Assembly: GCA_963662625.1 (NCBI GenBank)
Contig: OY759726.1
Location: 64,001 to 128,000 of the forward strand
Origin: Nitrosopumilus sp.
GTDB taxonomy: Archaea > Thermoproteota > Nitrososphaeria > Nitrososphaerales > Nitrosopumilaceae
Length of the DNA stretch: 64,000 bases
Direction of reading: 5' to 3'
The notes beneath the pieces were generated by a model, which worked only from the letters and a program-made list of their open reading frames with translations, was not told the DNA's origin and did not search any database. Shown in pieces: positions 2,285-39,409 of this stretch (the first letter of the stretch is position 1; each line of letters begins with the position of its first letter). A program made the translations under genes and the position numbers.

Positions 2285-2394
2285 GGTGGCAAGGCTGGCA
2301 CTTTTAGCATGTTATTTCCAGGTTCAGGAAGGCGCCGAAGATCATCGAGCACGTCAGGTAGCAAGGCTGGCACTTTTAGCATGTTATTTCCAGG
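2285..2394. repeat. Repeat-insert-repeat unit A: 38-bp direct repeat (1 mismatch) around a 34-bp unique insert
   Basis: ggtRgcaaggctggcacttttagcatgttatttccagg at 2285-2322 and 2357-2394; insert 2323-2356; period 72. Confidence 0.9.
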
Positions 2395-2395
2395 G

Positions 2396-2910
2396 TTGGC
2401 CGCGGGCAAGGCCGCGATCTTTGTTGGTGCCGGGCGTGCCTAACTGCAGTGACTCGCAAAAAAAGCAAGGGGGCTGATCCTGTAAAACCATCCGAGGCCC
2501 TTGCAAAAGACCCGCGGGAGAAGACGGCGTTTTATGATGCGCTGCCAAGGTCTGGAACCAGCACGCATTCAAACGCGCAAAGATTTCGCAGCAGGACATC
2601 CAAATCGGACGAGTGCGAAGTACGCCTTGGAAGGCTGCAGCGTGGCGGGCGCGGCAGGCCAACGCAAAGGGTGGTCGGCGTGAGGCCGGGGGTCGATCTG
2701 GTTCAAATGAGCGTGAAGGGGGACTTTGACGCTGAAATCCTAACCACGGGCGATGGCGATTTCCCGCATGCCGTGGAAAAGGCTCTGGAAGTTAGCGCGA
2801 AGGCCAAGCTGGCCTATTTCCCAGGCTCGCCAATCAACGAGGAATTTCGACGGCCTTTTGACGGATGTGGGATTCTTCATGACGCATTGTTAGGTGCGTG
2901 CGAGCTGTGA
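2396..2910 (+). pseudogene. Degenerate NYN (LabA/DUF88, PIN-like) nuclease
   Basis: N-terminal KAAIFVG (expected AIFxD) followed by TAA at 2441. A downstream frame has FYDALP, VRLGRLQ, QRVVG (decayed QKGVD), GVDLV, ILTTGDGDF and LAYFP. Confidence 0.7.
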
Positions 2911-3122
2911 TGCAGGATCACTTATGAGCAAAAACTTAGCCCCGGATCTGTACTGTAGCGACGCGCGTAAGCCCACGGGATCAATTTTGTCAGACCGAGA
3001 CGCATTTTGATCGCGGCGTCCCGCGCAAGCCATGGCCACAACCGCGCCGGAAGATCCCGGGAAGGCGCGCAAAAAAGGGAAGGGCCAGAACCAGCCCCGG
3101 CCGCAGCGCATCCGTCTTCGCG

Positions 3123-4121
3123 CTACTCGGTCGAGCCGGGCCACATCATCTTCCGCATCTCCCTGCCGACCTTCTCGATCTGGTGCCCTTCGTACCGCCG
3201 CATGTGCCTGTCAAACGAGTCCCTGCCGCTCTTCCCGTACTCCGACACCCACTCGTCGTTGAACGTGCCGTCCTGGATCATCGCGAGGACCTTCCTCATG
3301 TTCTCCTTGCTCGCGGCGTCCATCACCATCGGGCCGCGCGTCAGGCCGCCGTACCTGGCTGTCTCGCTGACGCGCCTCCACATCCCGTTTATCCCGTACC
3401 TCTGGATCATGTCCACGATGAGCTTCAGCTCGTGCAGCACCTCAAAGTAGGCGATCTCCGGCTGGTAGCCGGCCTCGACCAGCGTCTCGAACGCGTTGGT
3501 GACCATCGACGCGGCGCCGCCGCACAGGTCGGCCTGCTCGCCGAACCAGTCGGTCTCCACCTCCTCCTTGAAGGTGGTCTGGATCAGCCCCGCGCGGGCG
3601 CTGCCTATGGCCTTGGCGATCCCCAGGGTCCTGTCCCAGGCCTTCCCGGTAAAGTCGCGCTCCACGGCCACGATCGACGGGGTCCCGAAGCCCTCGAGGA
3701 ACGTCTCGCGCACCTTGGATCCCGGCCCCTTGGGCGCCACCATGATCAGGTCGACGTCGCCCGGGGGCTCTATCCACTTCCAGTGGATCGCCGCGGCGTG
3801 CGAGAACGAGAGCGCGTTCCCCTCGGAGAGGTTCGGCCCTATCTCTTCCCGGTACGCGCGGCCCTGGACCATGTCGGGGATCAGCACGTGGACTATGTCC
3901 GCGCCCCTCACGGCGTCTGCCACGGGCGCCACCCTGTGGCCGTCGGACTCGGCCGCCTTCCAGCTGCCGCCGCCCTCCTTGAGCCCCACGGTCACGTCCA
4001 GGCCGGAGTCCTTCATGTTGTTTGCCTGCGCCCTGCCCTGGATCCCGTACCCGATTACCGCTATCGCCTGGCCCCTCACGGGGTCGAGGCTGATGTCCGC
4101 GTCCTTCCACGTCGTCGCCAT
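3123..4121 (-). CDS. ilvC: Ketol-acid reductoisomerase
   Basis: IGYGIQG Rossmann motif, MVAPKGPG, EEVETDWFGEQ, AYFEVLHE, SETARYG. Confidence 0.97.
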   Translation of the reverse strand: MATTWKDADISLDPVRGQAIAVIGYGIQGRAQANNMKDSGLDVTVGLKEGGGSWKAAESDGHRVAPVADAVRGADIVHVLIPDMVQGRAYREEIGPNLSEGNALSFSHAAAIHWKWIEPPGDVDLIMVAPKGPGSKVRETFLEGFGTPSIVAVERDFTGKAWDRTLGIAKAIGSARAGLIQTTFKEEVETDWFGEQADLCGGAASMVTNAFETLVEAGYQPEIAYFEVLHELKLIVDMIQRYGINGMWRRVSETARYGGLTRGPMVMDAASKENMRKVLAMIQDGTFNDEWVSEYGKSGRDSFDRHMRRYEGHQIEKVGREMRKMMWPGSTE

Positions 4122-4298
4122 CAGGGATCACTGGCGATTACTGCAAATATTAACTATTGAGTTCCGGGGCGCCGGCGGCCTAGAGCTCGGCCTCCCTCCC
4201 GCACCGCCTGCACCTCACCCTGACCCCCGGCCCGGGCAGCCTCTCGAACCGCTTCGAGCCGCAGCCGGGGCATATGGGGCACGCGCGCGCGGGCTTCA

Positions 4299-4829
4299 TC
4301 AGTGCTCCGTCGGCCTCGTGTCGGACCCGGAGATCGCCTCCAGGCGCCCCCGGCCGCCCGCCTCCCGGATCATCCGGGCCACGGGGGGAGGCACCAGCCC
4401 CTCCCAGTCGCCGCCAGAGGCGATCTTGGCGCGGATGCCGCTTGCGTTGTACCTCCCCCTGTCCAGGAAGTCCGGCCTGGCCACCTCGATCGACGAGTCG
4501 GCAAGCAGCATCGAGACGTAGCCGTTGCCGCTGTACACCCTGTCAAACGACGGCAGCGCGGCCCTGAGGTACGAGGCCCACGTCGCGATGTTGGGCTGGT
4601 TCTCGACTGCCGTTATGAAGCACCTCGAGAGCGGCAGCCCGGCGTCCAGGAGCGACGCGTGCACCATCTCGAGCCGCTCGCCGGCGGTGAACGGGTCCTT
4701 TTCCATGTAGTTGAACTGCGCGCTGGTGACCGCGATTATGGCCTCGTCGCACTCCGAGAGCACCTGCCTTGCCAGGTCCAGGTGCCCCAGGTGGAAGGGC
4801 TGGAACCGGCCCATCATCAGTCCCCGCAT
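4299..4829 (-). CDS. Nicotinamide-nucleotide adenylyltransferase (archaeal NMNAT)
   Basis: GRFQPFHLGH, PFTAGER, YSGN, ASGIR motifs. Confidence 0.92.
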   Translation of the reverse strand: MRGLMMGRFQPFHLGHLDLARQVLSECDEAIIAVTSAQFNYMEKDPFTAGERLEMVHASLLDAGLPLSRCFITAVENQPNIATWASYLRAALPSFDRVYSGNGYVSMLLADSSIEVARPDFLDRGRYNASGIRAKIASGGDWEGLVPPPVARMIREAGGRGRLEAISGSDTRPTEH

Positions 4830-5351
4830 GGGTTTGGGTGAGGCTTGATTTTATTAAAACCAGCCTATTTGGCGCCGCGCGGGGCCGCGCGGCCGGCCGG
4901 GGGGCGAAGCCGGCAGGGACGGTGCTGCGCACCGGCGGATCACGGTCGCCGGGACGGGCGATCGCCTAGCGCGATCACTGCGCAACGCGCCAGGCATTTT
5001 TGGGCCTGCCCCGGCCCGCGCGGGCCGGACCCGGCTCCGGCGCCTCAGCCGCGCAAGATGAGGCAGGTTTTGTGGCTTTTTTGGCGGGTTTTTATCCTCG
5101 TCTGGCCGTTTCTCTTCAAATCAATGGTCTTTTGCCTGCCATTGAGCGCTGCCAGGCATTTGGCGAAGAGGCCGCCGCGGCCGGCCAAGATGTCTCTTTC
5201 GCGTTCGATTCCTGCCGGATCGCATTCTGGGAACGCGGCGCCTACGGCGCCCATGCCGACGCGGCGGCCTCCGTACAGCATTTCCAGGTCCCCGCATGCG
5301 CGTGGCCCGGATCCTTCGGTCAAGGAATGCTGTCACGGTGGTTTGGACGGT

Positions 5352-5660
5352 TCAACGGGGAACCGGCGGCGGGGCCTGCCCTAATTGATCTGTTGCGGTT
5401 TGGATCGCTTCCTGCCGCCGTAAAGACCGGAATTGCCGCCCAAGTTTAATCATCGAAATGCCGCCGGCGATCATACAAATGCCTATCAAGAGATTGGCAA
5501 AGATCAGGTAATCGCCGCCTTCAAAATCGACAGGGGGGGTGACCGAGGCGGATGTCATGGCACCATATAGAAACACGAACAGCATGATCGGAAATGCCCA
5601 CAAAAAGTACGCGGATGCCACAATCAGAACGACGCCCAGCGCTCGAGGGTATTTGCTCAT
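5352..5660 (-). CDS. Hypothetical membrane protein in a low-GC islet
   Basis: ATG at 5660 overlaps the upstream stop (ATGA); two hydrophobic segments. Confidence 0.6.
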   Translation of the reverse strand: MSKYPRALGVVLIVASAYFLWAFPIMLFVFLYGAMTSASVTPPVDFEGGDYLIFANLLIGICMIAGGISMIKLGRQFRSLRRQEAIQTATDQLGQAPPPVPR

Positions 5661-6510
5661 AAATAAAAAAGCTGCCAGGTAGCAAGCAGCGTTACCCCTG
5701 TCCAACCTAGTTGCGTTGTTTTCCCGTTCGGCCTTTCGTACTCGTTAGTGGTCGTGATCAGCGTTAATCTGTCTGGACCAAATGCGTCGCAATTGATTGC
5801 GTCAAAGGTTTCAGAACTGTTGCTTGTCTTCAGCGTGCATATTTGTGTTTTTATGGGGCCGTTGCCCGGAATTGCGGCAGCCAGTACGTAATGTGTCTTT
5901 TTTGTCTCTTCATGCTCTATTGTTTCACACGTTCGGCTCCTTCGCTCTTTGAATTTCTTGTCCATTTCATCAGGATGTGTGAATTCGCCTGAAATTTCAG
6001 CAGTTCCATCCGTGTATGATATTAGCGTGGATTTTGCGTTACCATATGCGTATTTTTTGTCTTTACAGTCGTATTGTGATTGCCGATGCCAGTTCTTTTT
6101 GTACACGTCTATGGTTTCCCCTGCGATTTTGCAACATCGCCCGATGGCTCCGTTACGTTTTCGCTGTCTGGTTGCTTTGGATAGGTGTCTTCCAGCAGTC
6201 GTGTCAGGTTATTGATTTTCTCTAGTCGCAGTTGCTCCGTTTCATAACCCTCATCTGGTTTGTCTGACTGTTCAGAAGTTATGATTATTTCTTTGGCAAT
6301 GACCAGCCTGTCAGGTGATTTCTGCAACCCGGTTCTTTGTTCAGAATCTGCATTTTCGATTGCTTGCAGATATGTTGCTATCGCCGAGTTTATTTCTTCG
6401 ATGTCAGTGGCCCCGTCGGATCCAGACGCGGCGTTCATGGTACTGAACGGCAGGATCATCGCAACGATCAAAGTGGCAAACAGGATTGTTTTCGAGTTTT
6501 TTCCCGCCAT
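5657..6510 (-). pseudogene. Secreted hypothetical protein, apparently split by a frameshift (ORFs 6109-6510 and 5657-6106)
   Basis: Signal peptide MAGKNSKTILFATLIVAMILPFS. The downstream frame is open across the stop (IAGETIDVYKK). GC is much lower than in the flanks. Confidence 0.55.
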
Positions 6511-6620
6511 TGCGTGGGGTTACTCGCCTTCGTTATATAGCAATTGACATCTGTTTGCGGCGTGCCTTTTGGGCGTGAAAACGCAGGAAGCCGCCGGCGC
6601 GGGCCGCCAGCGCCCCGGGA

Positions 6621-7376
6621 TCACGGGAACGACTCCAGCACCGCCGCGTAGCTCGCGAACCTGTGGTTCTCCGGGACGACCCTCACGTCGCGGTACCTGG
6701 GCATCGCCCTGCCCGACGCGCCGCGGAGCCCGAGGGGGGGCCACGCGAGGCCGGCCCCGCCCGCCGCGGAGAGGACCTCGTCGGCGGGGCTGTAGTAGTT
6801 GACCACCTCCCCGGCCACCACCAGGCCCAGGTTCCCCGAGTGCCCCGGGGACGACGGGACGCCGCTGGGTATGGACGCGCCGAAGAGGTGCACGCTCTCT
6901 ATCGCACCCCGGTTGCCGGGCCTCCTCGCGAGCCGCTCCACGGTGCTCAGTATCACCTGCGATCCCAGCGAGTGGCCCAGCAGGCGGATCCTCGTGCCGG
7001 GGCTGGCCGCCCTGAAGTCCTCCACGAACAGCGAGAGGTTGCGGCCGTTCTTCGCGGCGATCCTCTGCCCCGCCGCGAGCGCGCGCCTCGCGTGCCGGGC
7101 CAGGTGGGCGCCCCTCGTGTTGGAGTCGTAGCTCAGCCCCACCACGGGGTGGCGGTAGCCCAGCTCCGCCAGCCTGCCCCTGGCGATCTCCACCTTGTCG
7201 GCTGCCCCCCTGCTGTCGTTTCTCAGGCCGTGGATCATTATCGCCAGCTCCCCGGATCCCACGAGCCCCGCGAAGGCCCGCCTCGGGTACAGGTAGTACC
7301 TGTTCCTCTTGAGCGTCCTGCCCGTCGTCAGGTCGTAATAGCCCCGGGTCGACACCCTGGGCACGGCGCGCCTCAC
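6621..7376 (-). CDS. Alpha/beta hydrolase (DUF726/DUF900-like)
   Basis: GTG start overlaps the metG stop; IHG oxyanion motif, GHSLG nucleophile elbow, NYYSPADEVL, terminal NH. Confidence 0.8.
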   Translation of the reverse strand: MRRAVPRVSTRGYYDLTTGRTLKRNRYYLYPRRAFAGLVGSGELAIMIHGLRNDSRGAADKVEIARGRLAELGYRHPVVGLSYDSNTRGAHLARHARRALAAGQRIAAKNGRNLSLFVEDFRAASPGTRIRLLGHSLGSQVILSTVERLARRPGNRGAIESVHLFGASIPSGVPSSPGHSGNLGLVVAGEVVNYYSPADEVLSAAGGAGLAWPPLGLRGASGRAMPRYRDVRVVPENHRFASYAAVLESFP

Positions 7377-9031
7377 GGCCGGCGCCGCCCCAGGCGGCCC
7401 TTGTGCACCTCGATGTCCTGCGGCTCCACCCTGGCAAACAGCGGCGACGGCGTCCCGATGCGGCGGCCGGGCTCCATGCCGCAGTCGGACATGTCGGCCC
7501 ACCCGCGGTCGGCGACGCCCCCCTCCAGCCCCAGCTGCCCCCAGATCCTCTGCGACGACCCCGGGATGAACGGGTACAGCGCTATGGCCAGGCTCCGCGC
7601 CGCGTTGACCGAGAGGTAGACGCAGTTGGCGGTCCCGGGGCCGCCCTCCCACGGCTTTTTGTGCTGGAAGTACTGGTTGAACGAGGAGGAGAACTCCATG
7701 GCCCCCCTGAGCGCCCGGTCCAGGCGGTTCTCCCGCATCAGCGGCTCCAGCCGGCCCGCGAGCGACCCGATCCTGGACTCGGCGTCCCTGTCGGCGCCGT
7801 CGGGCTCCCCGGGCTCGGGGACCACCCCGCCGAACGCCTTCCTGGCGAACCCGAGCGCGCGGTTCACGAAGTTCCCCGCGTTCCCTATGAGCTCCGAGTT
7901 TATCCTGGCGGCAAACTCGTCCCAGTCGAAGTTCAGGTCGTCCTGGGAGTACGGGTTGATGGCGACCAGGTAGTACCGGAGGTAGTCGGCCGGGTAGTAT
8001 CCCAGGAACTCCTTCAGCCCGATGTACCAGTTCCTGCTCTTCGATATCTTCCGCGACTGCAGCGTGAGGTAGCCGCGCGTCGGGATGTGGTCGGGTAGCT
8101 TGTACTCGCGCCCGATCCCCATCCGTACCGCGGGCAGGAACAGGTAGTGGTGGTACGCTATGTCCTTGCCGATAAAGTGGTAGATGTCCGCCGAGTTCCA
8201 GAACTCCTTCCCGTCCACCCCCCGGCCCCTGAGGAACTCCACCGCGGAGGTCATGTACGCCAGGTGGTTGTCGAACCAGCCGTAGAACACCTTCCCCCCG
8301 GCCCCGTCCAGCGGGACGGGCACCCCCCACGGGATGTCCCGCGTGATGTCCCAGTCGATCAGGCCCGACCCTATCCAGTTCTGGACGTACTTTTTGACGT
8401 CCTTCTGGAGGTTCTGGTTCCCGTCGAGCCACTCCGACAGCTCGCCCCCGAAGTCCTTCAGCCTGAAGAAGTAGTGCGTCGTCCTCTCCTTGGTGGGCGG
8501 GCGGCCGCAGATCGAGCACCGCGGGTCCGAGATCTCCTCCGGGACGCGGCCGCAGTCCTCGCACAGGTCGGAGTACTGGTCGGCCGCGCCGCAGTGGGGG
8601 CACGTGCCCTTGACGTACCTGTCGGGGAGGAACTTCCCGTCGTTGGCGCAGTAGAACTGGATGATCTCCCTCTCGTACACGTGGCCCGCCGAGCGCAGCT
8701 TCCTGAAGACGTCCTGCACGAAGGCGGCGTGCTCGGGCGAGCTGGTCCTGTGGAAGTAGTCGAAGGCGATGCCGAACGCCGCAAAGTCCTCGCGGTAGCG
8801 CCCGTTCCAGTACCTGACGTACTCCCCCGGATCCCTGCCCTCCTTCTCGGACTGGATGAGGATCGGGGTGCCAAAGTCGTCTGACGCGCAGACGTGGTAC
8901 GCCTCGACCCCGGTCATCCTCAGGAACCGGGTGGTGACGTCGGCCGGCAGGTACGTGGAGGCGACGTGCCCCAGGTGGATCTCCCCGTTGGCGTAGGGCA
9001 GCGCGCTGGTCACTATGGCCTTCCTTCCCAT
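7373..9031 (-). CDS. metG: Methionine--tRNA ligase
   Basis: SALPYANGEIHLGH, zinc knuckles, DWDITRD, FIGKDI, KISKS. Confidence 0.97.
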   Translation of the reverse strand: MGRKAIVTSALPYANGEIHLGHVASTYLPADVTTRFLRMTGVEAYHVCASDDFGTPILIQSEKEGRDPGEYVRYWNGRYREDFAAFGIAFDYFHRTSSPEHAAFVQDVFRKLRSAGHVYEREIIQFYCANDGKFLPDRYVKGTCPHCGAADQYSDLCEDCGRVPEEISDPRCSICGRPPTKERTTHYFFRLKDFGGELSEWLDGNQNLQKDVKKYVQNWIGSGLIDWDITRDIPWGVPVPLDGAGGKVFYGWFDNHLAYMTSAVEFLRGRGVDGKEFWNSADIYHFIGKDIAYHHYLFLPAVRMGIGREYKLPDHIPTRGYLTLQSRKISKSRNWYIGLKEFLGYYPADYLRYYLVAINPYSQDDLNFDWDEFAARINSELIGNAGNFVNRALGFARKAFGGVVPEPGEPDGADRDAESRIGSLAGRLEPLMRENRLDRALRGAMEFSSSFNQYFQHKKPWEGGPGTANCVYLSVNAARSLAIALYPFIPGSSQRIWGQLGLEGGVADRGWADMSDCGMEPGRRIGTPSPLFARVEPQDIEVHKGRLGRRRP

Positions 9032-9082
9032 CCCTGTCAGTCCCGCCCGAGGGCTTAAGAAGCTTCTCAAGCGCCGCTGCGG

Positions 9083-10330: not shown

Positions 10331-10420
10331 TGCACGGCCCGCGGACGAATAAAACTCTTGAGATCCCACGGGGGCCGCGGCACCAAAGGCTAGAAATAGC
10401 CAGCGCCCCGGTACATTACC

Positions 10421-10723
10421 GTGGCTTGGAGGAAGATCGCCGAGAACGGCTCCGTGGCGGAGGGCAGGGGCAAGGCGTTCGAGGTCGGCGGCAGGAAGAT
10501 AGCCGTCTTCAACCAGGGCGGGTACCACGCCGTCGACGACCTGTGCGTGCACCAGGACGGCTCGATCGCGCCCGGGAAGCTGGACGGGGACATCGTGGAG
10601 TGCCCGCTGCACTTCTGGCACTACAACATCAGGACGGGCCAGCTGACGGACTACCTCAAGGACGTGAAGCTGCGGACGTACCCGGTGGAGTCAAGGGACG
10701 ACGGCATCTACGTCGACGTCTAG
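10421..10723 (+). CDS. Rieske [2Fe-2S] ferredoxin
   Basis: CVH and CPLH Rieske ligand motifs. Confidence 0.9.
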   Translation: MAWRKIAENGSVAEGRGKAFEVGGRKIAVFNQGGYHAVDDLCVHQDGSIAPGKLDGDIVECPLHFWHYNIRTGQLTDYLKDVKLRTYPVESRDDGIYVDV

Positions 10724-10780
10724 CGCGGGGACTGGCCGCCAAGACAATTCTTAATTGTGGCGGCTGGCCCACGTACACTG

Positions 10781-13005: not shown

Positions 13006-13343
13006 CCTTCGGCCGTTTTGGGAGGCCCGGGCGCGCGGAAGGCGTCCCGGGGCTGGCACGGGGGCGGGATCCGGGGAGCGTGACCGCGGTCGCGGCGGCA
13101 CGGCTCACCCGGGCGCCGCACGCGGCGTGGAACGCCGGCATGGCGCCCGGGGCGGGGGCGGCGTCCGGGATCCCCCCTGCGATCGGCGGGTTCCCGCACG
13201 GGGCGGGCCTGATCGAGATCGCGTCCGCAGCGGGCTCCCGGATGGCGGCGTGCGGCCTGGCGAAGAAGGGGCGCGGGGGAAGCGCGGCGCGGGGAGCTTG
13301 CGGTTGCGGCAGCGCGCCGCGGCCGGCGGCCCGGCACGTGGGC

Positions 13344-13696: not shown

Positions 13697-13713
13697 CGCG
13701 GCGCACGTACGCC

Positions 13714-18959: not shown

Positions 18960-19035
18960 CCTAGATACACCTAACGGCGGGCAGATTAAAAATTTGCTCA
19001 AGGCCGCGCTGGCGGGGTGAGGCCCGGATCCGGCT

Positions 19036-19140
19036 CCCGGGCGGGGGTTCCCGGGCGGGGGTTCCCGGGCGGGGGTTCCCGGGCGGGGGTTCCCGGGCGG
19101 GGGTTCCCGGGCGGGGGTTCCCGGGCGGGGGTTCCCGGGC
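19036..19140. repeat. 14-bp G-rich tandem repeat (cccgggcgggggtt) x7.5
   Basis: Read directly from the sequence. Confidence 0.95.
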
Positions 19141-19273
19141 GACGGTTCCCGCACGCAGGCGCGCCGCCGCGCGGACGCGGGGCGATCGGGCGCCCGTTAG
19201 CTGTGCCTACACACAATTAACCATCAGAAATTAGGTAAAACTGATAAAAAGCTAGGCGGCGTACACTCCAACG

Positions 19274-30239: not shown

Positions 30240-30383
30240 GAAGTGGGTCGCGGGGGCGGCATTTTTGAATCATGCTGTACGCCTGGCGCGTTCCGTGGTG
30301 ATCCCGACTGGGAACCTCCCACAAAGCAGCCTGCAACGCCAGGCCGAAAGATCCGGATCGTGGCACGCGTGGGATGGCGCGCG

Positions 30384-30492
30384 TGGGGCACCGCCATTCC
30401 AACCCGGGGGAATTCCCAGTGTACTGCTCCACGTGCATGAGTTACGCGCTCTTCGATGGGGCACCGCCATTCCAACCCGGGGGAATTCCCAG
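30384..30492. repeat. Repeat-insert-repeat unit B: perfect 36-bp direct repeat around a 37-bp unique insert
   Basis: tggggcaccgccattccaacccgggggaattcccag at 30384-30419 and 30457-30492; period 73. Confidence 0.92.
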
Positions 30493-30685
30493 GGCGGGGC
30501 ACTGCAGGGGGCTGCTGGCCGGGGCATCCGCGCCGGCGTCCGAGGGGACGTTCGGGTGCACGCCGCGCCCGCGCGGGCGGGGGAGCGCGGCGCGGGAGGC
30601 AAGGCCCGTGCCGGGATCCCCCGCCGGGCTTCTCCGGGGGCCGGCAACCGGTCTGTCTGCCTTCTCGCACGTTTGCTGGGGCCGC

Positions 30686-33160
30686 CTAGCCGGCCACCCT
30701 GTAGTTTATCTTGTAGTAGAACCTGGACACCTGGTCGCCCTTGAGCACCTCCACCTTCCAGTCCGCGTCGGGCAGGAACTCCGAGGGATCCGACGGCACG
30801 ATGGAGAACTTTTCCAGGCGGGCGTCGGGGCCGCTGTAGCGCACGTCGAGGACGGCCCCGTCCACCCGCACCGTCTCGTAGACCGATCCCGGGCCGCGCG
30901 TGGGGCCAGTGACCAGGCACCCCGGGTACGGCCCCACCACGCACTTGCCGGATCCCGAGAAGACCGCCAGGTTCACCGCCGCCAGGTCCGACCTGGACGG
31001 GGTGGCCAGGGAGCCCGACAGGACGCGCGGGTTCATGGTCCCGTCGTCCCCGGACTGCTTGGCTGCAGTGCGGATGGCGATCTCGGAGTCCGGGATGCGG
31101 TTGACCTTCTCGATCACCTTCGACGGCGGCCCCGGCGCGTCGGCCGGCCGCGCCGGGACCACCTCGAACGTGGCCGACTCCGAGCCGAACGGCGCGTCCG
31201 CGGTGACCTCGTAGGTGCCCTCCGCCGACGGCGAGCCGCCAAGCGTGAACTCGTAGGTGAACGAGCCCGAGGGGCCCGGGACGACTGAGGCGGCCGGCAC
31301 GGCGGGTATCCCGCAGAACGAGGGGCCGCAGGCCAGCATGGTCCCGGACTTTTGGATCACGCTGACGCCGAACCGCTCGACGTACGTCGTCTTGCTGGGC
31401 TTGCCAGTCACCGTCACGGTGTCCCCCGGCCCGTAGGACTCCCGGTCAAGCGACATCACGAGGGACAGCCCGGGCCCCAGCGCGAGCTCGTTTGCCACGC
31501 CGAACGAGGACTCGGCCCGGAGGCCCGAGTAGGAGGCCCTTACCTTGTACTGGCCCTCCCCGAAGACGGTGGCGGGCAGCTCGAAGAGGCTCGAGAACCC
31601 GCCCCCCTGGTCAGGGTACACGGATGCCGCGTAGATCTCCGCGAATGGGGCCGCGCCCGACAGGACCGAGATCCTCACGCGCTCGGGGACCACTAGGCCC
31701 TCGGCCCCCTGGGGCCTCGCGATGACTGACCCCTCCACCTTGAGCTTCTCGCCGGCCTGGTACACCGGCTTTGACGGCCCCACCGTCAGGTGCTTCGTGG
31801 GCAGGCTGTCCCCGGCAGGGTCGGCGGACACCTTGAACAGGATGATCTTGCTGAGCCCCCCGCCCGACACGCTGATCTTGTAGACCCCGAGGTTGGAGCT
31901 CAGGACTGACCTGTCGTCGGCTGACTTTACTGGCGCGGGGCTTTCGGACGACGGGGTCTGCCACTGCCAGGAGAACCTCTGGTCGTCGGCCCTCGTGCCG
32001 GAGTTTATGACGGTGCCGTCGGGCTTGGTGACGGCGATCGAGACCGCGTTCTCCCCGGCCGGCGGGAGCAGGCCGGTCATGCGGACGGTCTCGCCCAGCC
32101 CGTAGACCTCCTTGTCGATGGAGACCGAGGTCTTCCCGGCGCCCACCGGATCCACCAGCTCGACCGTGACCGACCGGGAGAGGTCCCGGTAGTGCGCCTC
32201 CACCAGGTAGACGCCCTCGGAGTACGCGGCCCGCGGGAGGGCGATCTCGAGCGAGAACCGCCCGGACTTGTCCGGGATGGCCGTGTACTCTATCCCCACC
32301 GGGGCTCCGCCGGCGTCGGAGACGGCCAGCGCCACCCGGTCCGTCTCGAACGTCGGGGCAGAGGCGGGGCGCGCTATCTTGCCGCCGACGGTCATGCTGG
32401 CCCCCAGGTCGTAGGATGGCCGGTCCGAGGCAAGGGTCAGCTGCCCCCCGCCCGCCTCGTACGACCCCGGATCCGCGGCCACCACGAACGACTTCGTGGC
32501 CGACCCGACGTCCTGCGAGACCCTGATCAGGTAGTCCCCCAGCCGCGCGTCCGAGTCGGGTATGGAAAACGAGTACTCGAACCTGCCGGCGCCGTCCAGG
32601 CGGACGGCGTCCAGTATCTTCATGACGGAGCCGCCGCCGGAAGCGCCGCCTAGGGCGATGTTCTTGGTCTGCACGATCTCGATGTCCATGGACGGGATCC
32701 ACACGTCGTTGAGCCTGCCCGTGACGGTGACCGTCTCGCCCGGCCCGTACGCCTCCCTGTCGGTCCACAGCGAGATCGGCGTGTCCTCCTTGGCGTCGGC
32801 GACGAGCTCGAAGGACGCGGTCGCGGACTGGCCGGCATACGTGCCGGAGACCGCGTAGGCGCCGTACTCCGGCCCGACGGTGCTCATGAACACGCCGGTG
32901 GAGAACGCGCCGTCGGTGGGGAACAGGCTGCCCGAGGCGACGATCGAGCCGGAGGGGCCGGACACCTGGAACCGCAGCCCCTCGAGCGGGACCACCGTGT
33001 CGGTCTGGCCCGTGATCATGACCAGCTCGCCGGGCACGTAGGAGGCCTTGTCGGTGAGCAGCAGGAGGGTGCCGTCCCGGCCGGGCTCCTGGGCGTGGGC
33101 GGGGGCCGCGATCAGGGCTAGGAGTGATACCGAGAGTAGCGCGAGGACACTTGCATTCAT
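30686..33160 (-). CDS. Large secreted protein with repeated MG2/Ig-like domains
   Basis: Signal peptide; repeated TDKxxYxxGE/DxVxITG motifs. Confidence 0.85.
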   Translation of the reverse strand: MNASVLALLSVSLLALIAAPAHAQEPGRDGTLLLLTDKASYVPGELVMITGQTDTVVPLEGLRFQVSGPSGSIVASGSLFPTDGAFSTGVFMSTVGPEYGAYAVSGTYAGQSATASFELVADAKEDTPISLWTDREAYGPGETVTVTGRLNDVWIPSMDIEIVQTKNIALGGASGGGSVMKILDAVRLDGAGRFEYSFSIPDSDARLGDYLIRVSQDVGSATKSFVVAADPGSYEAGGGQLTLASDRPSYDLGASMTVGGKIARPASAPTFETDRVALAVSDAGGAPVGIEYTAIPDKSGRFSLEIALPRAAYSEGVYLVEAHYRDLSRSVTVELVDPVGAGKTSVSIDKEVYGLGETVRMTGLLPPAGENAVSIAVTKPDGTVINSGTRADDQRFSWQWQTPSSESPAPVKSADDRSVLSSNLGVYKISVSGGGLSKIILFKVSADPAGDSLPTKHLTVGPSKPVYQAGEKLKVEGSVIARPQGAEGLVVPERVRISVLSGAAPFAEIYAASVYPDQGGGFSSLFELPATVFGEGQYKVRASYSGLRAESSFGVANELALGPGLSLVMSLDRESYGPGDTVTVTGKPSKTTYVERFGVSVIQKSGTMLACGPSFCGIPAVPAASVVPGPSGSFTYEFTLGGSPSAEGTYEVTADAPFGSESATFEVVPARPADAPGPPSKVIEKVNRIPDSEIAIRTAAKQSGDDGTMNPRVLSGSLATPSRSDLAAVNLAVFSGSGKCVVGPYPGCLVTGPTRGPGSVYETVRVDGAVLDVRYSGPDARLEKFSIVPSDPSEFLPDADWKVEVLKGDQVSRFYYKINYRVAG

Positions 33161-33298
33161 GGCGGGGACCTACCTGAACGTGGAAGCGGTGTGATTTTAG
33201 AGGGGGATTGAGGAAAAGTTGAGCTAGTTGTTAAAGTCGGGCATGCGGGGTCCAACGGCAACGCTCCGCGCCCGCCCGCTTTAAGGCGTGCGCACGAC

Positions 33299-33538
33299 TC
33301 ATCCGGGGCCGCAGTCCGGGCACCTCCCCCCGCGCACGGGGGAGCCGCACTCGGCGCAGATCCCCTCGCCGGCGTCGCGCCTGACCGCCTGCCTGGTCCT
33401 CACGACGTAGAGCTTTATGCCGAAGAACATGGCTGCCACTATGGCGATGGCGTAGGCGGGCGCCATGAACGGGGTCAGGCCTACCGCGAAGAGGGCCAGG
33501 CCCGCGACCAGGATGGCGTCCCTTTTCTCAAAATTCAC
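33299..33538 (-). CDS. Small membrane protein with C-terminal zinc ribbon
   Basis: Two TM segments, then CAEC...CPDC. Confidence 0.75.
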   Translation of the reverse strand: MNFEKRDAILVAGLALFAVGLTPFMAPAYAIAIVAAMFFGIKLYVVRTRQAVRRDAGEGICAECGSPVRGGRCPDCGPG

Positions 33539-33570
33539 AGAGTCAGGGCCGGGGCGTGGCGATAAAAACG

Positions 33571-33639
33571 TGCCGGGCTCGGCCGTAGCAGTCATTCCAC
33601 CAAAAGTCAATTACTCTAACTCCTCCTCATCGCCCGGCA
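33571..33639 (-). ncRNA. Candidate box C/D guide sRNA
   Basis: Minus strand: tgccgggc-g-ATGAGGA-ggagttagagtaa-TTGA-cttttggt-GGAATGA-ctgctacgg-CCGA-gcccggca. It has an 8-bp terminal stem and spans 52 nt from C to D; all boxes are variant forms. Confidence 0.6.
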
Positions 33640-33675
33640 AGCCAGGTGCGCGCACGGCCCGGTAATAAGTGATCA

Positions 33676-33752
33676 TGGTGGGATCGGCGGGATTTGAACG
33701 CGCGACCTCTGCGTCCCAAACGCAGAATCATGCCATGCTAGACTACGATCCC
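33676..33752 (-). tRNA. tRNA-Pro (anticodon TGG), CCA encoded
   Basis: GGGATCG acceptor stem, CTGCG-TTTGGGA-CGCAG anticodon arm, TTCAAAT T-loop, ACCA end; one C:C mismatch in the T-stem. Confidence 0.93.
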
Positions 33753-33827
33753 CCGTAACACCTCAGGGCTGCCCAATTTAAGCTTGACAGGCAATCATTT
33801 TAAGTGCTGGCCCCCGGACAGGAAACC

Positions 33828-34724
33828 ATGCAGAGGGACGACTACCTCAGGGCCGGGAGGATCGCCGGGGAGGTGAGGGAGATTGTCAGGGGGAAGGACT
33901 GGGTCGGGAAGACGGTCTACGAGATCTGCGAGGGGGTGGAGGCCGAGATCGTCAGGAGGGGGGCCAGGTGCGCGTTTCCCGTGAACGCGAGCATCAACGA
34001 GGTCGCGGCCCACTACACGGCGGAGCCGGGCGACCCGACCGCCATAGGCGACACGGACCTGGTGAAGATAGACCTCGGGGCGCAGGTCAACGGCTACATA
34101 GCCGACACCGCCGTGACGGTGTGCTACGACGCGAGGTTCGACGGCATGGTGCGGGCGGCCGAGGCCGCGCTGGACAGGGCGATGTCGGTGGCCAGGGCCG
34201 GCGTGAAGGCCAGCGACATCGGCAGGGCCATAGAGGCGTCCATCAAGCAGGCCGGCTTCAAGCCCATCGCCAACCTGAGCGGGCACTCGCTGGACAGGTA
34301 CACCATACACGCCGGCAGGACCATCCCGAACATATGGTCCATCGGGGGGTTCTCGCTGTCCGAGGGCGCGGCGTACGCGTGCGAGCCGTTCGTGACGGCG
34401 TCCGACGGCGGGGGGTTCGTGAGGAACGGCAGGGCGAGGAACATATTCGCGATAAACTCCAGGAAGAAGACCGGGGACGCCGGGGCAGACGAGATGCTGG
34501 ACCACATCTGGAGGGAGTTCAACATGCTGCCCTTCGCCCTGAGGTGGCTCGTCGGGAGGTGGGACGAGGGGGAGGCAAGGGCGCTGCTGGGTCGCCTGGT
34601 CAGCAAGAAGGCGGTCCAGGCGTACCCCGTCCTGGTCGAGGTGAACGAGCGGAGGGTGGCGCAGGCAGAGCACACGTTCATCCCGGACGCCGGCGGGGTG
34701 ACGGTCACCACCACGGCGGGCTAG
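33828..34724 (+). CDS. map: Methionine aminopeptidase type II
   Basis: AFPVN, AAHYT, DLGAQVNGYIADTA, NLSGHS, IHAG, ACEPF, QAEHT. Confidence 0.95.
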   Translation: MQRDDYLRAGRIAGEVREIVRGKDWVGKTVYEICEGVEAEIVRRGARCAFPVNASINEVAAHYTAEPGDPTAIGDTDLVKIDLGAQVNGYIADTAVTVCYDARFDGMVRAAEAALDRAMSVARAGVKASDIGRAIEASIKQAGFKPIANLSGHSLDRYTIHAGRTIPNIWSIGGFSLSEGAAYACEPFVTASDGGGFVRNGRARNIFAINSRKKTGDAGADEMLDHIWREFNMLPFALRWLVGRWDEGEARALLGRLVSKKAVQAYPVLVEVNERRVAQAEHTFIPDAGGVTVTTTAG

Positions 34725-34736
34725 CCGCCGGCGGGC

Positions 34737-34910
34737 TCAGTCCTGCAGCTCCCCGAAGATCTTCTCGATCGCGGCGGCCCCGCCGCAGGAGCCGCACGCG
34801 GCGGCGGCAAACAGGACGTCCCCCTCCCTGAACCGCCTCTTCCTCTCGGCGCCGCACGACGCGCACCTCTCCAGCGTGTACGCCACGGTGGCCCTCTCCC
34901 GGGAGAACAC
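34737..34910 (-). CDS. Small zinc-ribbon protein
   Basis: CASC...RFREGDVLF...CGSC...IEKIFGE; start overlaps the upstream stop. Confidence 0.75.
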   Translation of the reverse strand: MFSRERATVAYTLERCASCGAERKRRFREGDVLFAAAACGSCGGAAAIEKIFGELQD

Positions 34911-36031
34911 TACTGCGGCACCCCCACGGTGTTCCCCACGCCCACCACCAGGACGGACTGGCCTGGCCTCGTGTTGTCGCGGATCATCTCGCGCACCTGC
35001 TCCCGCACGTTCTCCGCCTGGTACGCTATGTCCCTGGTCATCAGGGTGATGGCCTCCCCGACCGACTGCTTTACTATGATCGAGAACACCGGGATCCGGT
35101 TCCTCGTCGCGATCCCCTCGATCTGGTGCCTCTCGGTGCCGATCCCGCCTATGGCCGCGCCAAAGCCGCGGGCCACCGCGGCCGAGTCCTCCCCCTCCAT
35201 CTTCAGCGCCGCGTCGACCATTATGATCGCGTCGATCGGGCCCCGCTCGAGTATCGACTCGATCGCGTCGCCGGGCCTGCCCACCGCGGAGCCGGGCCCC
35301 TCGGCCTTCAGCAGGAGCAGCCGCCTCCCGTCGAACTCGGTGGTGCCGAGCACCGTCTGGAACGACACGGGCTCCTGCTTGGTTCCGAGCATCATCCCGC
35401 CCACCACCATCGGCCCTATCCCGTCGCCGATCGGCTGCCCCATCCTGAAGGCTGGGATGGCGCGGCTCATGGCCTTGGCCTCCTCCATCACGAAGGGGAG
35501 GATCATCTGCAGCGGCAGGATGAGCGGGTAGTTGTTCTGCTTCTTTGCGGTAAGGAACATGTGGTTGATGACCTTGTGCAGCATGTGCAGCGACGTCGCG
35601 AGTTCGAGCAGGGTGTGGACCCGGGTCAGTTCCAGGTCGCCGATCCCTGGCAGGAGCGACCTCACGTGCTCCCGGGAATAGTCCTCCCGGGAGCGCACCA
35701 TGTGCCGGATCTTCTCCATCACGCCGCCGGGATCCGTGTCGACGGGCATGATCGTAAAGTAGTCCAGGAACGTGTCGATTTTTTTGGACGGGTCGGCGCC
35801 CGGGCCGGCCGACTTGCGGACGTGGTCTATCAGCTCCGCCCTGGCGTCCGTCCTGTAGAGATCCAGCTTCTTGATCCCCTTCTTGATCTCCCCGGACGTG
35901 ATCTGGAGCTGGATCCTCTGCCCGTAGAACACGAAGACTATTATCGGGATGATCCACACCAGCATCATCAGGGGGTTGCTGTCGTCCCCGAACCCGAACA
36001 GCTGGTCGACGTCCAGGTTTGTAAAATCCAT
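34910..36031 (-). CDS. DUF1512 family protein
   Basis: PVDTDPGG, GQPIGDGIGP, KAEGPGS, VDAALKMEGE, GVGNTVGVPQ. Confidence 0.85.
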   Translation of the reverse strand: MDFTNLDVDQLFGFGDDSNPLMMLVWIIPIIVFVFYGQRIQLQITSGEIKKGIKKLDLYRTDARAELIDHVRKSAGPGADPSKKIDTFLDYFTIMPVDTDPGGVMEKIRHMVRSREDYSREHVRSLLPGIGDLELTRVHTLLELATSLHMLHKVINHMFLTAKKQNNYPLILPLQMILPFVMEEAKAMSRAIPAFRMGQPIGDGIGPMVVGGMMLGTKQEPVSFQTVLGTTEFDGRRLLLLKAEGPGSAVGRPGDAIESILERGPIDAIIMVDAALKMEGEDSAAVARGFGAAIGGIGTERHQIEGIATRNRIPVFSIIVKQSVGEAITLMTRDIAYQAENVREQVREMIRDNTRPGQSVLVVGVGNTVGVPQ

Positions 36032-36191
36032 GTGTGAGCCTCCGGCGGATCCAAATTAAATCATTCCTACGGGGGCCGGCCCCCCGGGACGCCAGGCGGC
36101 ACGGCCCGGCCACGGCCCGCGGATCGTGCCGGGTTGTGCAACAGGCCACGGGGCGGGGATCGTTTTTATCTGATCGGTGCCGACTTGTTGC

Positions 36192-36845
36192 ATGGACCGC
36201 CTTTACGCAGCGCTGCTGGCGGTGCTGGCCGGGTGCGCCTTTTCGGCGGCGGCGTTCGCGGAGGACGGCCGGCAGGTGCCAGAGTGGGTGAGGGACGCCG
36301 CCGTGTGGTGGGGGCTGGGCCTGGTGGACGACTCGGAGTTCTTCGGCCTGGTGGGGTTCCTGGTGGAGGAGGGCCTGATCGCGGCTGGGCCCGGGGCGCC
36401 GGAGATCCGGGACGCGTATGACCGGGGGTACGCCGACGGGCTTGCGGCCGGGGAGGACGCGCTATGGGAGTACGTGGACGGCTCGCTGGGGCGGCTGTCC
36501 TTCGTCGAGGGCGCGTCGCTGTCCGTGGTCACCGAGGGTTCCGCCTTTGGGAAGGGCGAGCGGGTGGCGGTGAGGATAGTGAACACCGGGACGGCGCCGC
36601 TGACGTTCGGGTCCGCCTCCTACGGGCTCGTGATCACCGGGCCGTCGGGCGGGGTGGTGTACGAGCCGGTCGCGGCGGCGGTGATGAGCCACCTGGGGCC
36701 GGGCGAGGAGGCGCGGGGCTCCTGGGACCAGATCCACAGCGACGGGCGGCCCGTGGGGAAGGGGCTGTACAAGATCCACGCCGGGGGGCACGACCAGAAC
36801 TTTAACGCCGTCGGCGGGTCGGCCACCGTGGCGGTACTGGGATAG
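36192..36845 (+). CDS. Secreted protein with PEWV repeat and BsuPI/Ig-like C-terminal domain
   Basis: Signal peptide, VPEWVRDAAVWW, WDQIHSDGRPVGKGLY. Confidence 0.75.
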   Translation: MDRLYAALLAVLAGCAFSAAAFAEDGRQVPEWVRDAAVWWGLGLVDDSEFFGLVGFLVEEGLIAAGPGAPEIRDAYDRGYADGLAAGEDALWEYVDGSLGRLSFVEGASLSVVTEGSAFGKGERVAVRIVNTGTAPLTFGSASYGLVITGPSGGVVYEPVAAAVMSHLGPGEEARGSWDQIHSDGRPVGKGLYKIHAGGHDQNFNAVGGSATVAVLG

Positions 36846-36976
36846 GGCAGCCTGCCGCGGCCCGCGCGCGGGGCGCGTTGCGCGCCGTCCGGCACCGCGT
36901 TGCCGCCCGGGGGCGGGGTGGCTTCGAATGCTAATATACGCGTCCCCCGTACTGCCCCCATGGTGCCGCCCGGGGG

Positions 36977-37435
36977 ATGAAGACCGTCTACCTCGCAAAC
37001 CCGTACGGGTTCTCAGGGCAGCAGCGGGACGGCCCCCTGCGGGACCTGGTGCGGGTCCTGGAGGAGATGGGCGCCGAGGTGTGGGAGCCTTTCGCCCGCA
37101 ACAACCAGGGAGGCACGCTGGGGCCCGGCGCCGCATACCGCATAGGCCAGAAGGACATGCGCGACGTGCGGGATTCTGACGGGATCCTCGCGGTGGTCAA
37201 CGGCGTGCCCCCTGACGAGGGGGTCATGGTGGAACTGGGCATGGCGGTTGCCTGGGGGCGGGAGGTGTTCCTCTTCAGGGACGATTTCAGGAGGTGCACT
37301 GACAGCGGCGAGTACCCCCTCAACCTGATGCTGTTTGCGGGGCTCCCGGAAAAGGGGTGGCGCGACAGGTACTATACCGGAATAGACGATCTCCGCGATC
37401 CGGACGGGGCCCTGGCCAGGTGGCTCGCAGGCTGA
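36977..37435 (+). CDS. Nucleoside 2-deoxyribosyltransferase family protein
   Basis: VYLANPYGF, DVRDSDG, PDEGVMVELG, NLML. Confidence 0.88.
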   Translation: MKTVYLANPYGFSGQQRDGPLRDLVRVLEEMGAEVWEPFARNNQGGTLGPGAAYRIGQKDMRDVRDSDGILAVVNGVPPDEGVMVELGMAVAWGREVFLFRDDFRRCTDSGEYPLNLMLFAGLPEKGWRDRYYTGIDDLRDPDGALARWLAG

Positions 37436-37638
37436 CAGGGCGGGGCCGCTTGGGAGATCCCCTCCCCCTGCCGGCTAGTGCGCGGGCAGCCGGCGCCCAG
37501 CCCGGGGCGTCCTGGCGCCTGATTTTTGGCCCATTTGCCGAATTCGTCCGGGCCGTGGCGCGTAAAATGACCCAAAGCAGGAAAAATGCGTGCCGCCTAA
37601 CACGCTTTTATTATAGTTAATATAAAAGAAGGCTGGAC

Positions 37639-38199
37639 ATGCCCCAGACGAAGCCCATAGTCAGCGTGGAAAACGTGGTTGCGTCGGCGTCCGTCGACCA
37701 GAAGATGGATCTCAACGAGATCACGAAGACGTTCCCGGACGTGGAATACCACCCCGACCAGTTCCCCGGGCTGGTCTTCAGGCTGAAGAGCCCCAAGACC
37801 GCGACCCTGATCTTCACGTCGGGAAAGATGGTGTGCACGGGCTCAAAGTCCGAGGAGATGGCCAGGAAGGCGGTCAAGACGGTGGTGCAGAAGCTCCGCA
37901 AGGGCGGGATCAAGGTGAAGAAGGACGCCGTGGTCGAGATACAGAACATCGTGGCGTCCATCAACCTGGGGGGGAAGATCCACCTGGAACAGGCCGCCAG
38001 GACGCTGCCCAGGAGCATGTACGAGCCGGAGCAGTTCCCGGGGCTGATCCACAGGATGCTGGACCCGAAGACGGTGATCCTGCTGTTCTCCTCCGGAAAG
38101 CTGGTCTGCACGGGCGCCAAGAAGGAGCCCGACGTGTACAGGTCGGTGAACAGCCTGCACGCCCTGCTCGAGGAAAAGGATCTCATGATTTACGACTGA
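37639..38199 (+). CDS. tbp: TATA-box-binding protein
   Basis: NVVAS/NIVAS, YxPEQFPGL, LIFTSGKMVCTG repeats. Confidence 0.98.
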   Translation: MPQTKPIVSVENVVASASVDQKMDLNEITKTFPDVEYHPDQFPGLVFRLKSPKTATLIFTSGKMVCTGSKSEEMARKAVKTVVQKLRKGGIKVKKDAVVEIQNIVASINLGGKIHLEQAARTLPRSMYEPEQFPGLIHRMLDPKTVILLFSSGKLVCTGAKKEPDVYRSVNSLHALLEEKDLMIYD

Positions 38200-38237
38200 G
38201 CGCGCCCTGCCGGGGGCCGCCGGGCCGGCTGCCCCGC

Positions 38238-39260
38238 TCACGCGATCTTCCTGGAGTTCACGAAGACCCCGCGGCCCTCGGTGACGGTCCCGATCTCCTG
38301 GCTTGCGATCCCGTGCCCCTTGAAGATCTCCACTATCCCCGCGGCCTCCCCCGCGGGCGCCACGACGCAGAACCCCACCCCCATGTTGAAGGTCCCGTAC
38401 ATCTCCTCGGGCCCCACGCCCTGCTCCTCGATCAGGCCCATGATGGGCGGGGGCCTGGGCAGCGAGTCTATCACGTACCCGGCCGCCTTCAGCCTGAGCA
38501 GCTTCGCGAACGAGCCGCCTGTGATGTGGGCAAGCCCGTGGACGCGGCACTTCCTCGCCGCCTCGAGGACTGGCCCGACGTAGATCTCGGTGGGGGCCAG
38601 CAGCGCGTCGCCCAGCGTCCCCACCCCCCTCACCCTGTCCATGGGCGAGTACCTCTGGAGCAGCGCCTTCCGCGCTAGCGAGTAGCCGTTAGAGTGGAGC
38701 CCGGTGCTCCTCGCGCCGACTATGACGTCCCCCGGCCCCACCTTGTCGCCCAGCACGAGCTCCCTCTTCGACGCCAGGCCCACCACCGTGCCGGCAAGGT
38801 CGAACGCGAAGCCGCTGCCCGCTATCACGCCGGGCATCACCGCGGTCTCCCCCCCGACTATCGGGACGGATGACTTTTTCGCGCCCTTCACGAGCCCCCC
38901 CACTATGCTCCTGAAGGCCGCCCGGTCGTTCCTGTTTGCCGCTATATAGTCCACGAACGAGACCGGGGTCGCCCCGATGCAGATCACGTCGTTGACGTTC
39001 ATCGCCACGCAGTCGATCCCGATCGTGCCGTACTTTTGCATCATGCTCGCGATCAGCACCTTCGTCCCGACCCCGTCGGTGTGGGTGGCGAGCATCTTCC
39101 CGCCCGGAATCTCCACGATTCCCGCGTAGTGGCCGAACCCGTGAGCGGTCCTGGCCCTCTCCCGGGGCCCGTGCGTGGACCCGATCAGCCTGCCCATCGC
39201 CCGCAGGCTTTCCTCGATCCCCGGCACGTCCACGCCGGCGTCCCTGTACGTCAGCCCCAT
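38238..39260 (-). CDS. purM: Phosphoribosylformylglycinamidine cyclo-ligase
   Basis: TYRDAGVD, TDGVGTK, GGETA, GLHSNGYSL, AHITGG, TFNMGVG. Confidence 0.96.
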   Translation of the reverse strand: MGLTYRDAGVDVPGIEESLRAMGRLIGSTHGPRERARTAHGFGHYAGIVEIPGGKMLATHTDGVGTKVLIASMMQKYGTIGIDCVAMNVNDVICIGATPVSFVDYIAANRNDRAAFRSIVGGLVKGAKKSSVPIVGGETAVMPGVIAGSGFAFDLAGTVVGLASKRELVLGDKVGPGDVIVGARSTGLHSNGYSLARKALLQRYSPMDRVRGVGTLGDALLAPTEIYVGPVLEAARKCRVHGLAHITGGSFAKLLRLKAAGYVIDSLPRPPPIMGLIEEQGVGPEEMYGTFNMGVGFCVVAPAGEAAGIVEIFKGHGIASQEIGTVTEGRGVFVNSRKIA

Positions 39261-39298
39261 GGCTTGTTGCGCCCCTGCTGCGCATAAAAGAATTTGCC

Positions 39299-39409
39299 CG
39301 GACGGGCGGTCCCGCTTCGTGACGCGCGTTCTGGAGTCCCTGGCCGCGGAACTGCACGCAGCATATGGCAGCGGACGGGCGGTCCCGCTTCGTGACGCGC
39401 GTTCTGGAG
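39299..39409. repeat. Repeat-insert-repeat unit C: perfect 38-bp direct repeat around a 35-bp unique insert
   Basis: cggacgggcggtcccgcttcgtgacgcgcgttctggag at 39299-39336 and 39372-39409; period 73. Confidence 0.92.

Follow-up and report, generated by a model that had tools for sequence, protein, structure and literature searches.

We analyzed a stretch of 64,000 nucleotides (nt) from Nitrosopumilus sp. (hereafter, the window), which comprises positions 64001-128000 of a single contig of 1,858,698 bp with 63.4% G+C (the whole genome, called G000). Our subject is three sites, A, B and C, at which two direct copies of a 36-38-nt sequence enclose an insert of similar length, and their relation to the type I-G CRISPR-Cas system (short palindromic repeats, clustered and regularly interspaced, and their associated proteins) of the same chromosome. 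An earlier note on this DNA had described three sites with one geometry and mutually unrelated repeats, and we recovered all three, as listed below in window positions.

2285..2322, no strand: site A, first target copy, 37-38 nt (repeat family D11, 97% identity to the second copy)
2323..2357, no strand: site A insert, a spacer of 35 nt (35/35 match to a chromosomal CoaBC-like gene)
2358..2394, no strand: site A, second copy of the duplicated target (from sequence and repeat family D11)
30384..30419, no strand: site B, first target copy, 36 nt (family D13, 100% identical, spacing 73)
30420..30456, no strand: site B insert, 37 nt, between the two D13 copies
30457..30492, no strand: site B, second copy of the duplicated target (family D13)
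39299..39336, no strand: site C, first target copy, 38 nt (family D10, 100% identical, spacing 73)
39337..39371, no strand: site C insert, 35 nt, between the two D10 copies
39372..39409, no strand: site C, second copy of the duplicated target (family D10)

At site A, the copies as aligned (2285-2322 and 2357-2394) are 38 nt long and have one mismatch and a period of 72. The borders were set by the match of the insert to its source, giving a spacer of 35 nt (2323-2357) and a duplication of 37 nt. The minus strand of genome 886359-886393 holds this source, which is flanked by TTT on the matching strand and is part of a CoaBC-like gene (DFP and Flavoprotein domains) 47 kb from cdc6. The site itself, which the earlier note had taken to overlap the promoter and start of a decayed gene, sits in a repeated element of ~1 kb (window ~2123-3123) without a Pfam-recognisable gene. 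The element is flanked by a B12-binding-domain gene and a ketol-acid reductoisomerase gene, which in three relatives are only ~50-110 bp apart. A paralog with 81% identity to the element is present at genome 9747-10550, and several further places hold fragments of the element. We observed that the pseudo-repeat of site A (the duplicated target sequence) is also duplicated in the paralogous element, at genome ~10.4 kb and 56 kb away, with the same borders and a different insert.

The copies of sites B and C are exact over 36 and 38 nt, respectively, both with a period of 73. Site B is located between an open reading frame (ORF) of 404 amino acids (aa) without a Pfam match and an MG2-domain gene. 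Its insert had no match of at least 20 identical bases in the genome, and a 30-nt core of it had no exact match in the viral_contigs collection. Site C occupies an intergenic position, downstream of a PAC2-family gene and 39 nt upstream of the point where an AIR-synthase-family gene (38238-39260, minus strand) starts. Its insert, likewise, had no self match in the genome, and its 29-nt core had no exact match in viral_contigs.

Dispersed sites across the chromosome

In an exact-run scan of the genome, interspersed direct repeats were in sharp excess at periods 71-74. The excess was made up of the canonical CRISPR array (1,683,981-1,693,746) and many isolated two-copy sites elsewhere. Among the isolated interspersed direct repeats with periods from 40 to 200 in the whole 1,858,698-bp genome, 28 of 55 had periods of 70-74. 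A mismatch-tolerant scan (34-nt window, at least 27 matches, canonical array excluded) gave counts of 2, 5, 5, 15, 11 and 4 at periods 69, 70, 71, 72, 73 and 74, respectively. All other periods between 45 and 130 that are not multiples of 3 had zero counts, except for a single match at 115. This clustering of periods is far beyond chance, and the sharp genome-wide peak for which the earlier note had called is found at 70-74.

Curation led to a list of 32 candidate insertions at 31 loci, the three sites of the window included. Clean duplications of 32-43 nt with at most two mismatches were seen in 27 of them (18 exact), with periods of 70 (4 sites), 71 (4), 72 (7), 73 (9) and 74 (3). Across the sites the duplications were mostly 36-38 nt long and the inserts 30-42 nt, or 31-38 nt where a source match fixed the borders of the insert. 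The remaining five sites were decayed; three of these were validated by source matches and one by an empty paralog. There were also ~10 weaker candidates and a degenerate site near 10.4 kb, which suggest older events.

The copies do not abut, as they would in a slippage-type tandem duplication, but are separated by 30-42 nt from distant loci. Nor do the sites make up a bona fide CRISPR array, as every site has its own repeat, unrelated to the canonical repeat, and no flanking motif is shared. At one locus (genome 463591-463770) we found three repeat copies with two inserts; the repeat here shares a 9-mer with the canonical one. Together with the second use of the pseudo-repeat of site A, this locus hints that some sites are preferred or re-used.

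Ten of the pseudo-repeats lie in repeated DNA. For nine sites there was a single-copy paralog that runs without a break from the left flank through one repeat copy into the right flank, and to which the filled site adds the insert and the second copy. The empty state sought in the earlier note was therefore found at these nine sites, in paralogs and not in orthologous alleles.

Such empty copies also bear on the possibility that the sites are assembly artefacts. The assembly apparently comes from a mixed sample and was checked against contigs only, which is in favor of this explanation. Three public runs of one study contain the stretch, as contigs built from 31-mers in which an empty allele has no unique word. 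In runs X1 and X2, which may be the source sample, the short-read contigs end 30 nt inside every repeat copy of sites B and C, the behavior that a true repeat exceeding the 31-mer word should show. Moreover, the 32 sites have unique sequences, graded decay and paralogous empty copies, and the same class of sites is present in independent assemblies of other species. We therefore give next to no weight to an artefact.

With respect to the choice of targets, a preference for AT-rich or promoter DNA was ruled out, as the flanks were GC-rich (69%). The mean folding energy of the pseudo-repeats was −11.2 compared to −8.7 kcal/mol (p=0.008), a difference confounded by a G+C content of 68.7% vs 63.4%. 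The repeated elements that host many of the G000 sites had no match in Pfam, and an ORF-based test of gene disruption in this genome is limited by a G+C content of 63%, which leaves all frames open. Sites are enriched at gene edges and in repeated DNA that is probably dispensable, which suggests that the set of surviving scars is shaped by purifying selection.

The window contains repeats of other kinds as well. The matches at period 75 and a few of those at period 72 were coding repeats of the DUF285 protein family. At window positions 46829-48028 there are at least 15 head-to-tail units of 75 nt, 67-79% alike, and more than 15 loci across the genome carry the same unit. One paralogous gene (L067:2421-3860) scored 542 bits for Pfam DUF285 and has PKD domains; the 75-nt units therefore belong to a large family of repeat-containing surface-type proteins. 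A 55-nt tandem repeat of ~9 units, the central ones 100% identical, is located at 59069-59563. Five copies of a ~39-nt unit, each starting with the palindrome-like GGGAACGGTCCC, are found at 58210-58454 with spacings of 64, 39, 39 and 52. Finally, a 42-nt tandem repeat of ~6 units is present at 61244-61495 (an inverted unit is at genome ~1,777,272), and a G+C-rich 14-nt unit is repeated in tandem, in ~9-13 copies, at 19004-19185.

The resident type I-G system and related genomes

The window holds no cas gene, as the earlier note had said. A type I-G CRISPR-Cas locus is, however, present on the same chromosome, 1.6 Mb from the window sites (genome 1,664,000-1,696,000), with the array placed between adaptation and effector genes. 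The array has 135 identical 36-nt repeats. Spacers of 34, 35, 36, 37, 38, 39 and 40 nt occur 1, 22, 41, 44, 17, 8 and 1 times, respectively, so that periods range from 70 to 76. Adjoining the array on the minus strand is a full-length Cas4g/Cas1g fusion gene (NF049935, 727.6 bits compared to a cut-off of 560) and, beside it on the same strand, a cas2 gene (PF09827, 63 bits). This was the only Cas1 match in the genome (1/1 candidates). Past the other end of the array are the type I-G effectors Cas7g/Csb1, Csb2, Cas3g and Cas8g1/Csx17, and a second, partial effector set is located beyond an IS481 transposase (two Csb1, two Csb2 and two Cas3g in total). In related loci the repeat has the orientation ATTTCC...CCCCATTGAAGC downstream of cas4/1-cas2, which puts the leader on the side of cas2. 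The degenerate repeat found at the opposite end of the array agrees with this placement.

The lengths of duplications and inserts at the dispersed sites are those of repeats and spacers in the resident array, both in G000 and in a second genome described below, and the mean period was ~72.1 for the dispersed sites compared to ~72.6 for the array. We consider it very probable that every site arose from a single off-target spacer integration, carried out by the type I-G Cas4/Cas1-Cas2 of the chromosome itself. The earlier note had proposed that a promiscuous Cas1-type integrase inserts ~35-bp fragments with ~37-bp duplications throughout the genome, and this idea is supported by the 32 sites and their match to the array geometry. 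Its proposal to compare the sites with cas genes and canonical dimensions also turned out well, given one intact Cas4/Cas1 fusion with Cas2, a 36-nt repeat and spacers of 34-40 nt. Its alternative of an unknown integrase is not needed.

Relatives of this Cas4/Cas1 were found in assemblies whose titles name Nitrosopumilus or Nitrosopumilaceae, Cenarchaeum, Caldilineaceae and Dehalococcoidia. Of the 46 loci flanking related cas4/1 genes, five held isolated non-canonical sites with periods of 71-75. For example, in Caldilineaceae (L051:10951-11067) a 73-nt insertion inside the cas4/cas1 gene duplicates 12 residues and leaves two frames; the integrase appears to have hit its own gene.

There are two complete genomes with the closest Cas4/1 (74% identical), and the smaller one, of a second species with a related I-G system (G031; 1,871,224 bp, 36% G+C), was scanned whole. 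We found 29 isolated sites at periods 70-76, corresponding to 28 unique events, and none at periods 77-116 except for one at 81. The duplications were mostly 36 nt long, compared to a 36-nt canonical repeat in this genome. Several of these insertions split genes: the pieces of an ABC permease match profile positions 1-85 and 66-174, an fn3/Big_9 protein is broken into 257 and 439 aa (with the insert ignored, there is one frame of 666 aa), and an IS1595 transposase is split as well.

Among genomes of the same family, Cas1 was found in 13 of 41. In the closest complete relative without a Cas1 match (G003), the first 800 kb had no isolated sites at periods 68-77, while the first 800 kb of G000 had 20 sites in the same pipeline.

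In G031 we also observed a second class of ~10 isolated sites, with a period of 63-68, a duplication of ~27-32 nt and an insert of ~34-39 nt (for example, at 1251065, 1265409, 1448839 and 1573079). At 1123019-1123234 the same genome retains part of a second Cas1 gene (a remnant of 83 aa), and the second-class sites may be scars of a lost system with ~30-nt repeats. This class indicates that more than one geometry is possible per genome. It could thus be taken as a sign that another enzyme, such as a different integrase, a transposase or a casposase-like Cas1, made the sites, the more so as Cas4/Cas1-Cas2 is tied to them by geometry and co-occurrence. On the other hand, G000 has a single Cas1 homologue, and in both genomes the inserts are as long as the resident spacers and the duplications as long as the resident repeats. 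The inserts have neither terminal inverted repeats nor coding capacity. The second class itself co-occurs with the remnant of a second Cas1, which fits a geometry that follows the integrase. We find the involvement of another enzyme very improbable.

Sources and fate of the inserts

Exact or near-exact copies elsewhere in the same chromosome were found for 13 of the 32 inserts, including that of site A. Twelve of these matches were 35/35, 33/33, 31/31, 36/36, 33/33, 36/37, 37/38, 34/35, 33/34, 30/31, 28/28 and 32/36, while the thirteenth insert matched six copies of an insertion sequence. Many of the self-matching inserts derive from host housekeeping genes. A TTN flank was present at four of the 13 sources (five with one ambiguous case) compared to an expectation of 7.2% (p=0.011 and 0.0015, respectively). 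In G031, seven inserts had self-protospacers (39/39, 32/32, 37/37, 37/37, 36/36, 37/37 and 34/35).

The canonical array behaves differently, since only two of its 134 spacers match the chromosome, neither with TTN. These are spacers 113 and 132 (genome 1,692,138 and 1,693,522), which match 37/37 at 837,999-838,035, beside the origin, and 38/38 at 1,799,688-1,799,725, respectively; one of the two is the third from the leader end. The contrast between scars and array would be explained by selection against autoimmunity in the array and its absence at silent off-target sites.

In both species the sources were concentrated near the replication origin. In G000, seven of the 14 unique self-protospacers, of which 12 come from scars and 2 from the array, are no more than 50 kb away from cdc6 (post hoc p=3e-6), clustered around a locus with both PolD subunits and the single Cdc6/Orc1 gene, and one is ~170 nt upstream of the cdc6 start. 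In G031 three self-protospacers lie within 52 kb of cdc6 (p=0.005), one of them 76 nt upstream of this gene. From these positions we infer that origin-proximal DNA is a preferred source of prespacers. We also noted that the flanks of two unrelated protospacers, at 925,979-925,986 and 1,512,141-1,512,148, share the 8-nt upstream sequence CTTGCCAC.

At the G000 junctions, microhomology between source flank and target end reached 4 nt in three of 18 cases and at least 2 nt in seven of 18 (p ~1e-4). This is what one would look for if the sites were accidents of replication or repair, by template switching or microhomology-mediated templated insertion, with no integrase involved. However, all 14 junctions of G031 share only 0-1 nt, and microhomology was not adopted as the mechanism, being significant in one genome and not seen in the other. 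A repair accident also gives no reason for a fixed duplication of ~36 bp combined with an insert of ~36 bp, both matching the CRISPR array, or for sources hundreds of kilobases distant, or for the lack of sites in 800 kb of the relative without a Cas1 match. We judge such an origin to be extremely unlikely.

One could also read the sites as functional dispersed one-spacer CRISPR units, transcribed and processed into guides or acting as a recording system. Their repeat-spacer-repeat layout is in line with it, and so are the locus at 463591-463770, with its three repeat copies, two inserts and 9-mer in common with the canonical repeat, and the use of the site A pseudo-repeat in two paralogous elements. 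However, the repeat is different at every site, and none is similar to the canonical repeat, which a type I-G processing nuclease would presumably recognize. Functional units would be autoimmune, as many inserts target host housekeeping genes, 4-5 of them with TTN flanks. Furthermore, the repeats decay, and insertions in G031 split genes. The distributed guide or recording system put forward in the earlier note thus found no indication, judging by pseudo-repeats that appear to share no sequence with the canonical repeat, and we hold functional units to be most unlikely.

The pseudo-repeats consist of ordinary local sequence, so that the inserts probably do not give rise to CRISPR RNAs, and the scars are probably neither processed nor expressed as guides; self-derived inserts would therefore persist. 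Under off-target integration by the resident complex, the adaptation complex would capture a prespacer of ~35-37 bp, very often from the host chromosome and preferentially near the cdc6-linked origin. Two strand-transfer cuts, ~36 bp apart on opposite strands, would then be made in ordinary DNA instead of at the leader-repeat and repeat-spacer junctions. Gap repair would duplicate the ~36-bp target on either side of the insert. Self-derived inserts, which would be autoimmune in a real array, would persist and decay neutrally.

Several observations weigh against this interpretation. The assignment of Cas4/Cas1-Cas2 as the likely catalyst is based on geometry and on co-occurrence in three genomes, and the negative control is a part (800 kb) of one genome, G003. 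No source was identified for 19 of the 32 inserts, those of B and C included, in a search of the genome (for B and C, also of viral_contigs). Only 4-5 of the 13 protospacers have TTN. The 552 canonical spacers of G000, G031 and related loci had no match outside arrays in the sequences examined, except for the two self-matches, and hence gave no protospacer adjacent motif (PAM). Orthologous empty alleles were not found in 30 relatives, in which the flanking genes have at most 79% identity and there is no alignable intergenic DNA. Where protospacers fix the borders, the duplications vary over ~34-39 nt, compared to array repeats of exactly 36 nt throughout. Finally, an orientation-aware search of the borders for a target-site motif gave 7.76 bits compared to 6.55 ± 0.49 in controls (~2.5 standard deviations), which we took as no motif.

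It is conceivable, yet rather doubtful, that some off-target sites are re-used as nascent CRISPR arrays, with natural array birth ongoing in the lineage. Such loci, if transcribed and processed, would show the origin of new arrays and repeat families.

Off-target spacer integration is, in this reading of the sites as products of the resident Cas4/Cas1-Cas2, a frequent natural mutational process that has left about one scar per 60 kb in two archaeal genomes. The genes split by scars encode an ABC permease, a surface protein and a transposase (all three in G031) and, in a bacterial relative, Cas4/Cas1. If they are not expressed as guides, the scars document which DNA the adaptation machinery captures, without the selection to which the array is subject, with 13/32 chromosome-matching inserts compared to 2/134 spacers. 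Both the in vivo accuracy of type I-G integrases in finding the array and the origin of naive spacers in archaea are thereby made testable.

Comparison with known systems

Off-target 'neo-CRISPR' integration by Cas1-Cas2 was reportedly described for the type I-E system of Escherichia coli by Nivala, Shipman and Church (2018, Nat Microbiol), and natural cases with circumstantial evidence are said to come from Yersinia pestis and Sulfolobus islandicus. Type I-G integrases work without IHF. As in the sites described here, the E. coli events consist of a spacer-length insert and a repeat-length duplication of non-CRISPR DNA outside the array, and there they are made by the resident integrase. In E. 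coli, Cas1-Cas2 was over-produced and oligonucleotides were supplied to obtain the events (PMC7054753), and the evidence for natural cases, in two other species, was circumstantial only (bioRxiv 10.1101/148544). In contrast, the sites described here are natural, archaeal and of type I-G; they number 27-32 per 1.86-Mb genome, they recur in a second species, and 13 of 32 inserts are demonstrably self-derived.

Canonical adaptation of type I-G (formerly I-U) in Geobacter sulfurreducens and Methanosarcina barkeri likewise uses a fused Cas4/Cas1 with Cas2. The G. sulfurreducens Cas4/1 has a TTN PAM, with TTN at 50% of unique new spacers, and a predominant spacer length of 36 bp (PMC6547450). In vitro, integration by the M. 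barkeri Cas4/1 was 80-90% correct at the leader side and 60-70% at the spacer side, and the variable length of the duplications in our sites fits this lower spacer-side accuracy (PMC10504553). Both studies deal with integration into a leader-repeat substrate; their accessible text does not speak of off-target integration into the chromosome, and the term 'off-target' is absent from that of PMC10504553. Ectopic acquisition, for example in Streptococcus type II-A, likewise takes the integrase to a site other than the leader-proximal repeat; there, however, genuine array repeats are used, whereas the targets here are unrelated chromosomal sequence (PMC8265633).

In the searchable full texts, with subscription journals and supplements outside their reach, we found no report of abundant natural events or of type I-G off-target integration. 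There was also no report of such sites in sponge-associated archaea, and the accessible portions of the literature on CRISPR in sponge Thaumarchaeota made no relevant mention.

Casposons and transposons also generate direct target duplications through a Cas1-family or other integrase. In casposons the duplication is ~14-15 bp long and encloses a multi-kilobase element that has terminal inverted repeats and genes of its own. At our sites, by contrast, ~35 bp of ordinary chromosomal DNA is enclosed by a duplication of ~36 bp. The kind of event is already known from the neo-CRISPR integrations of E. coli, and what is added here is its natural abundance.

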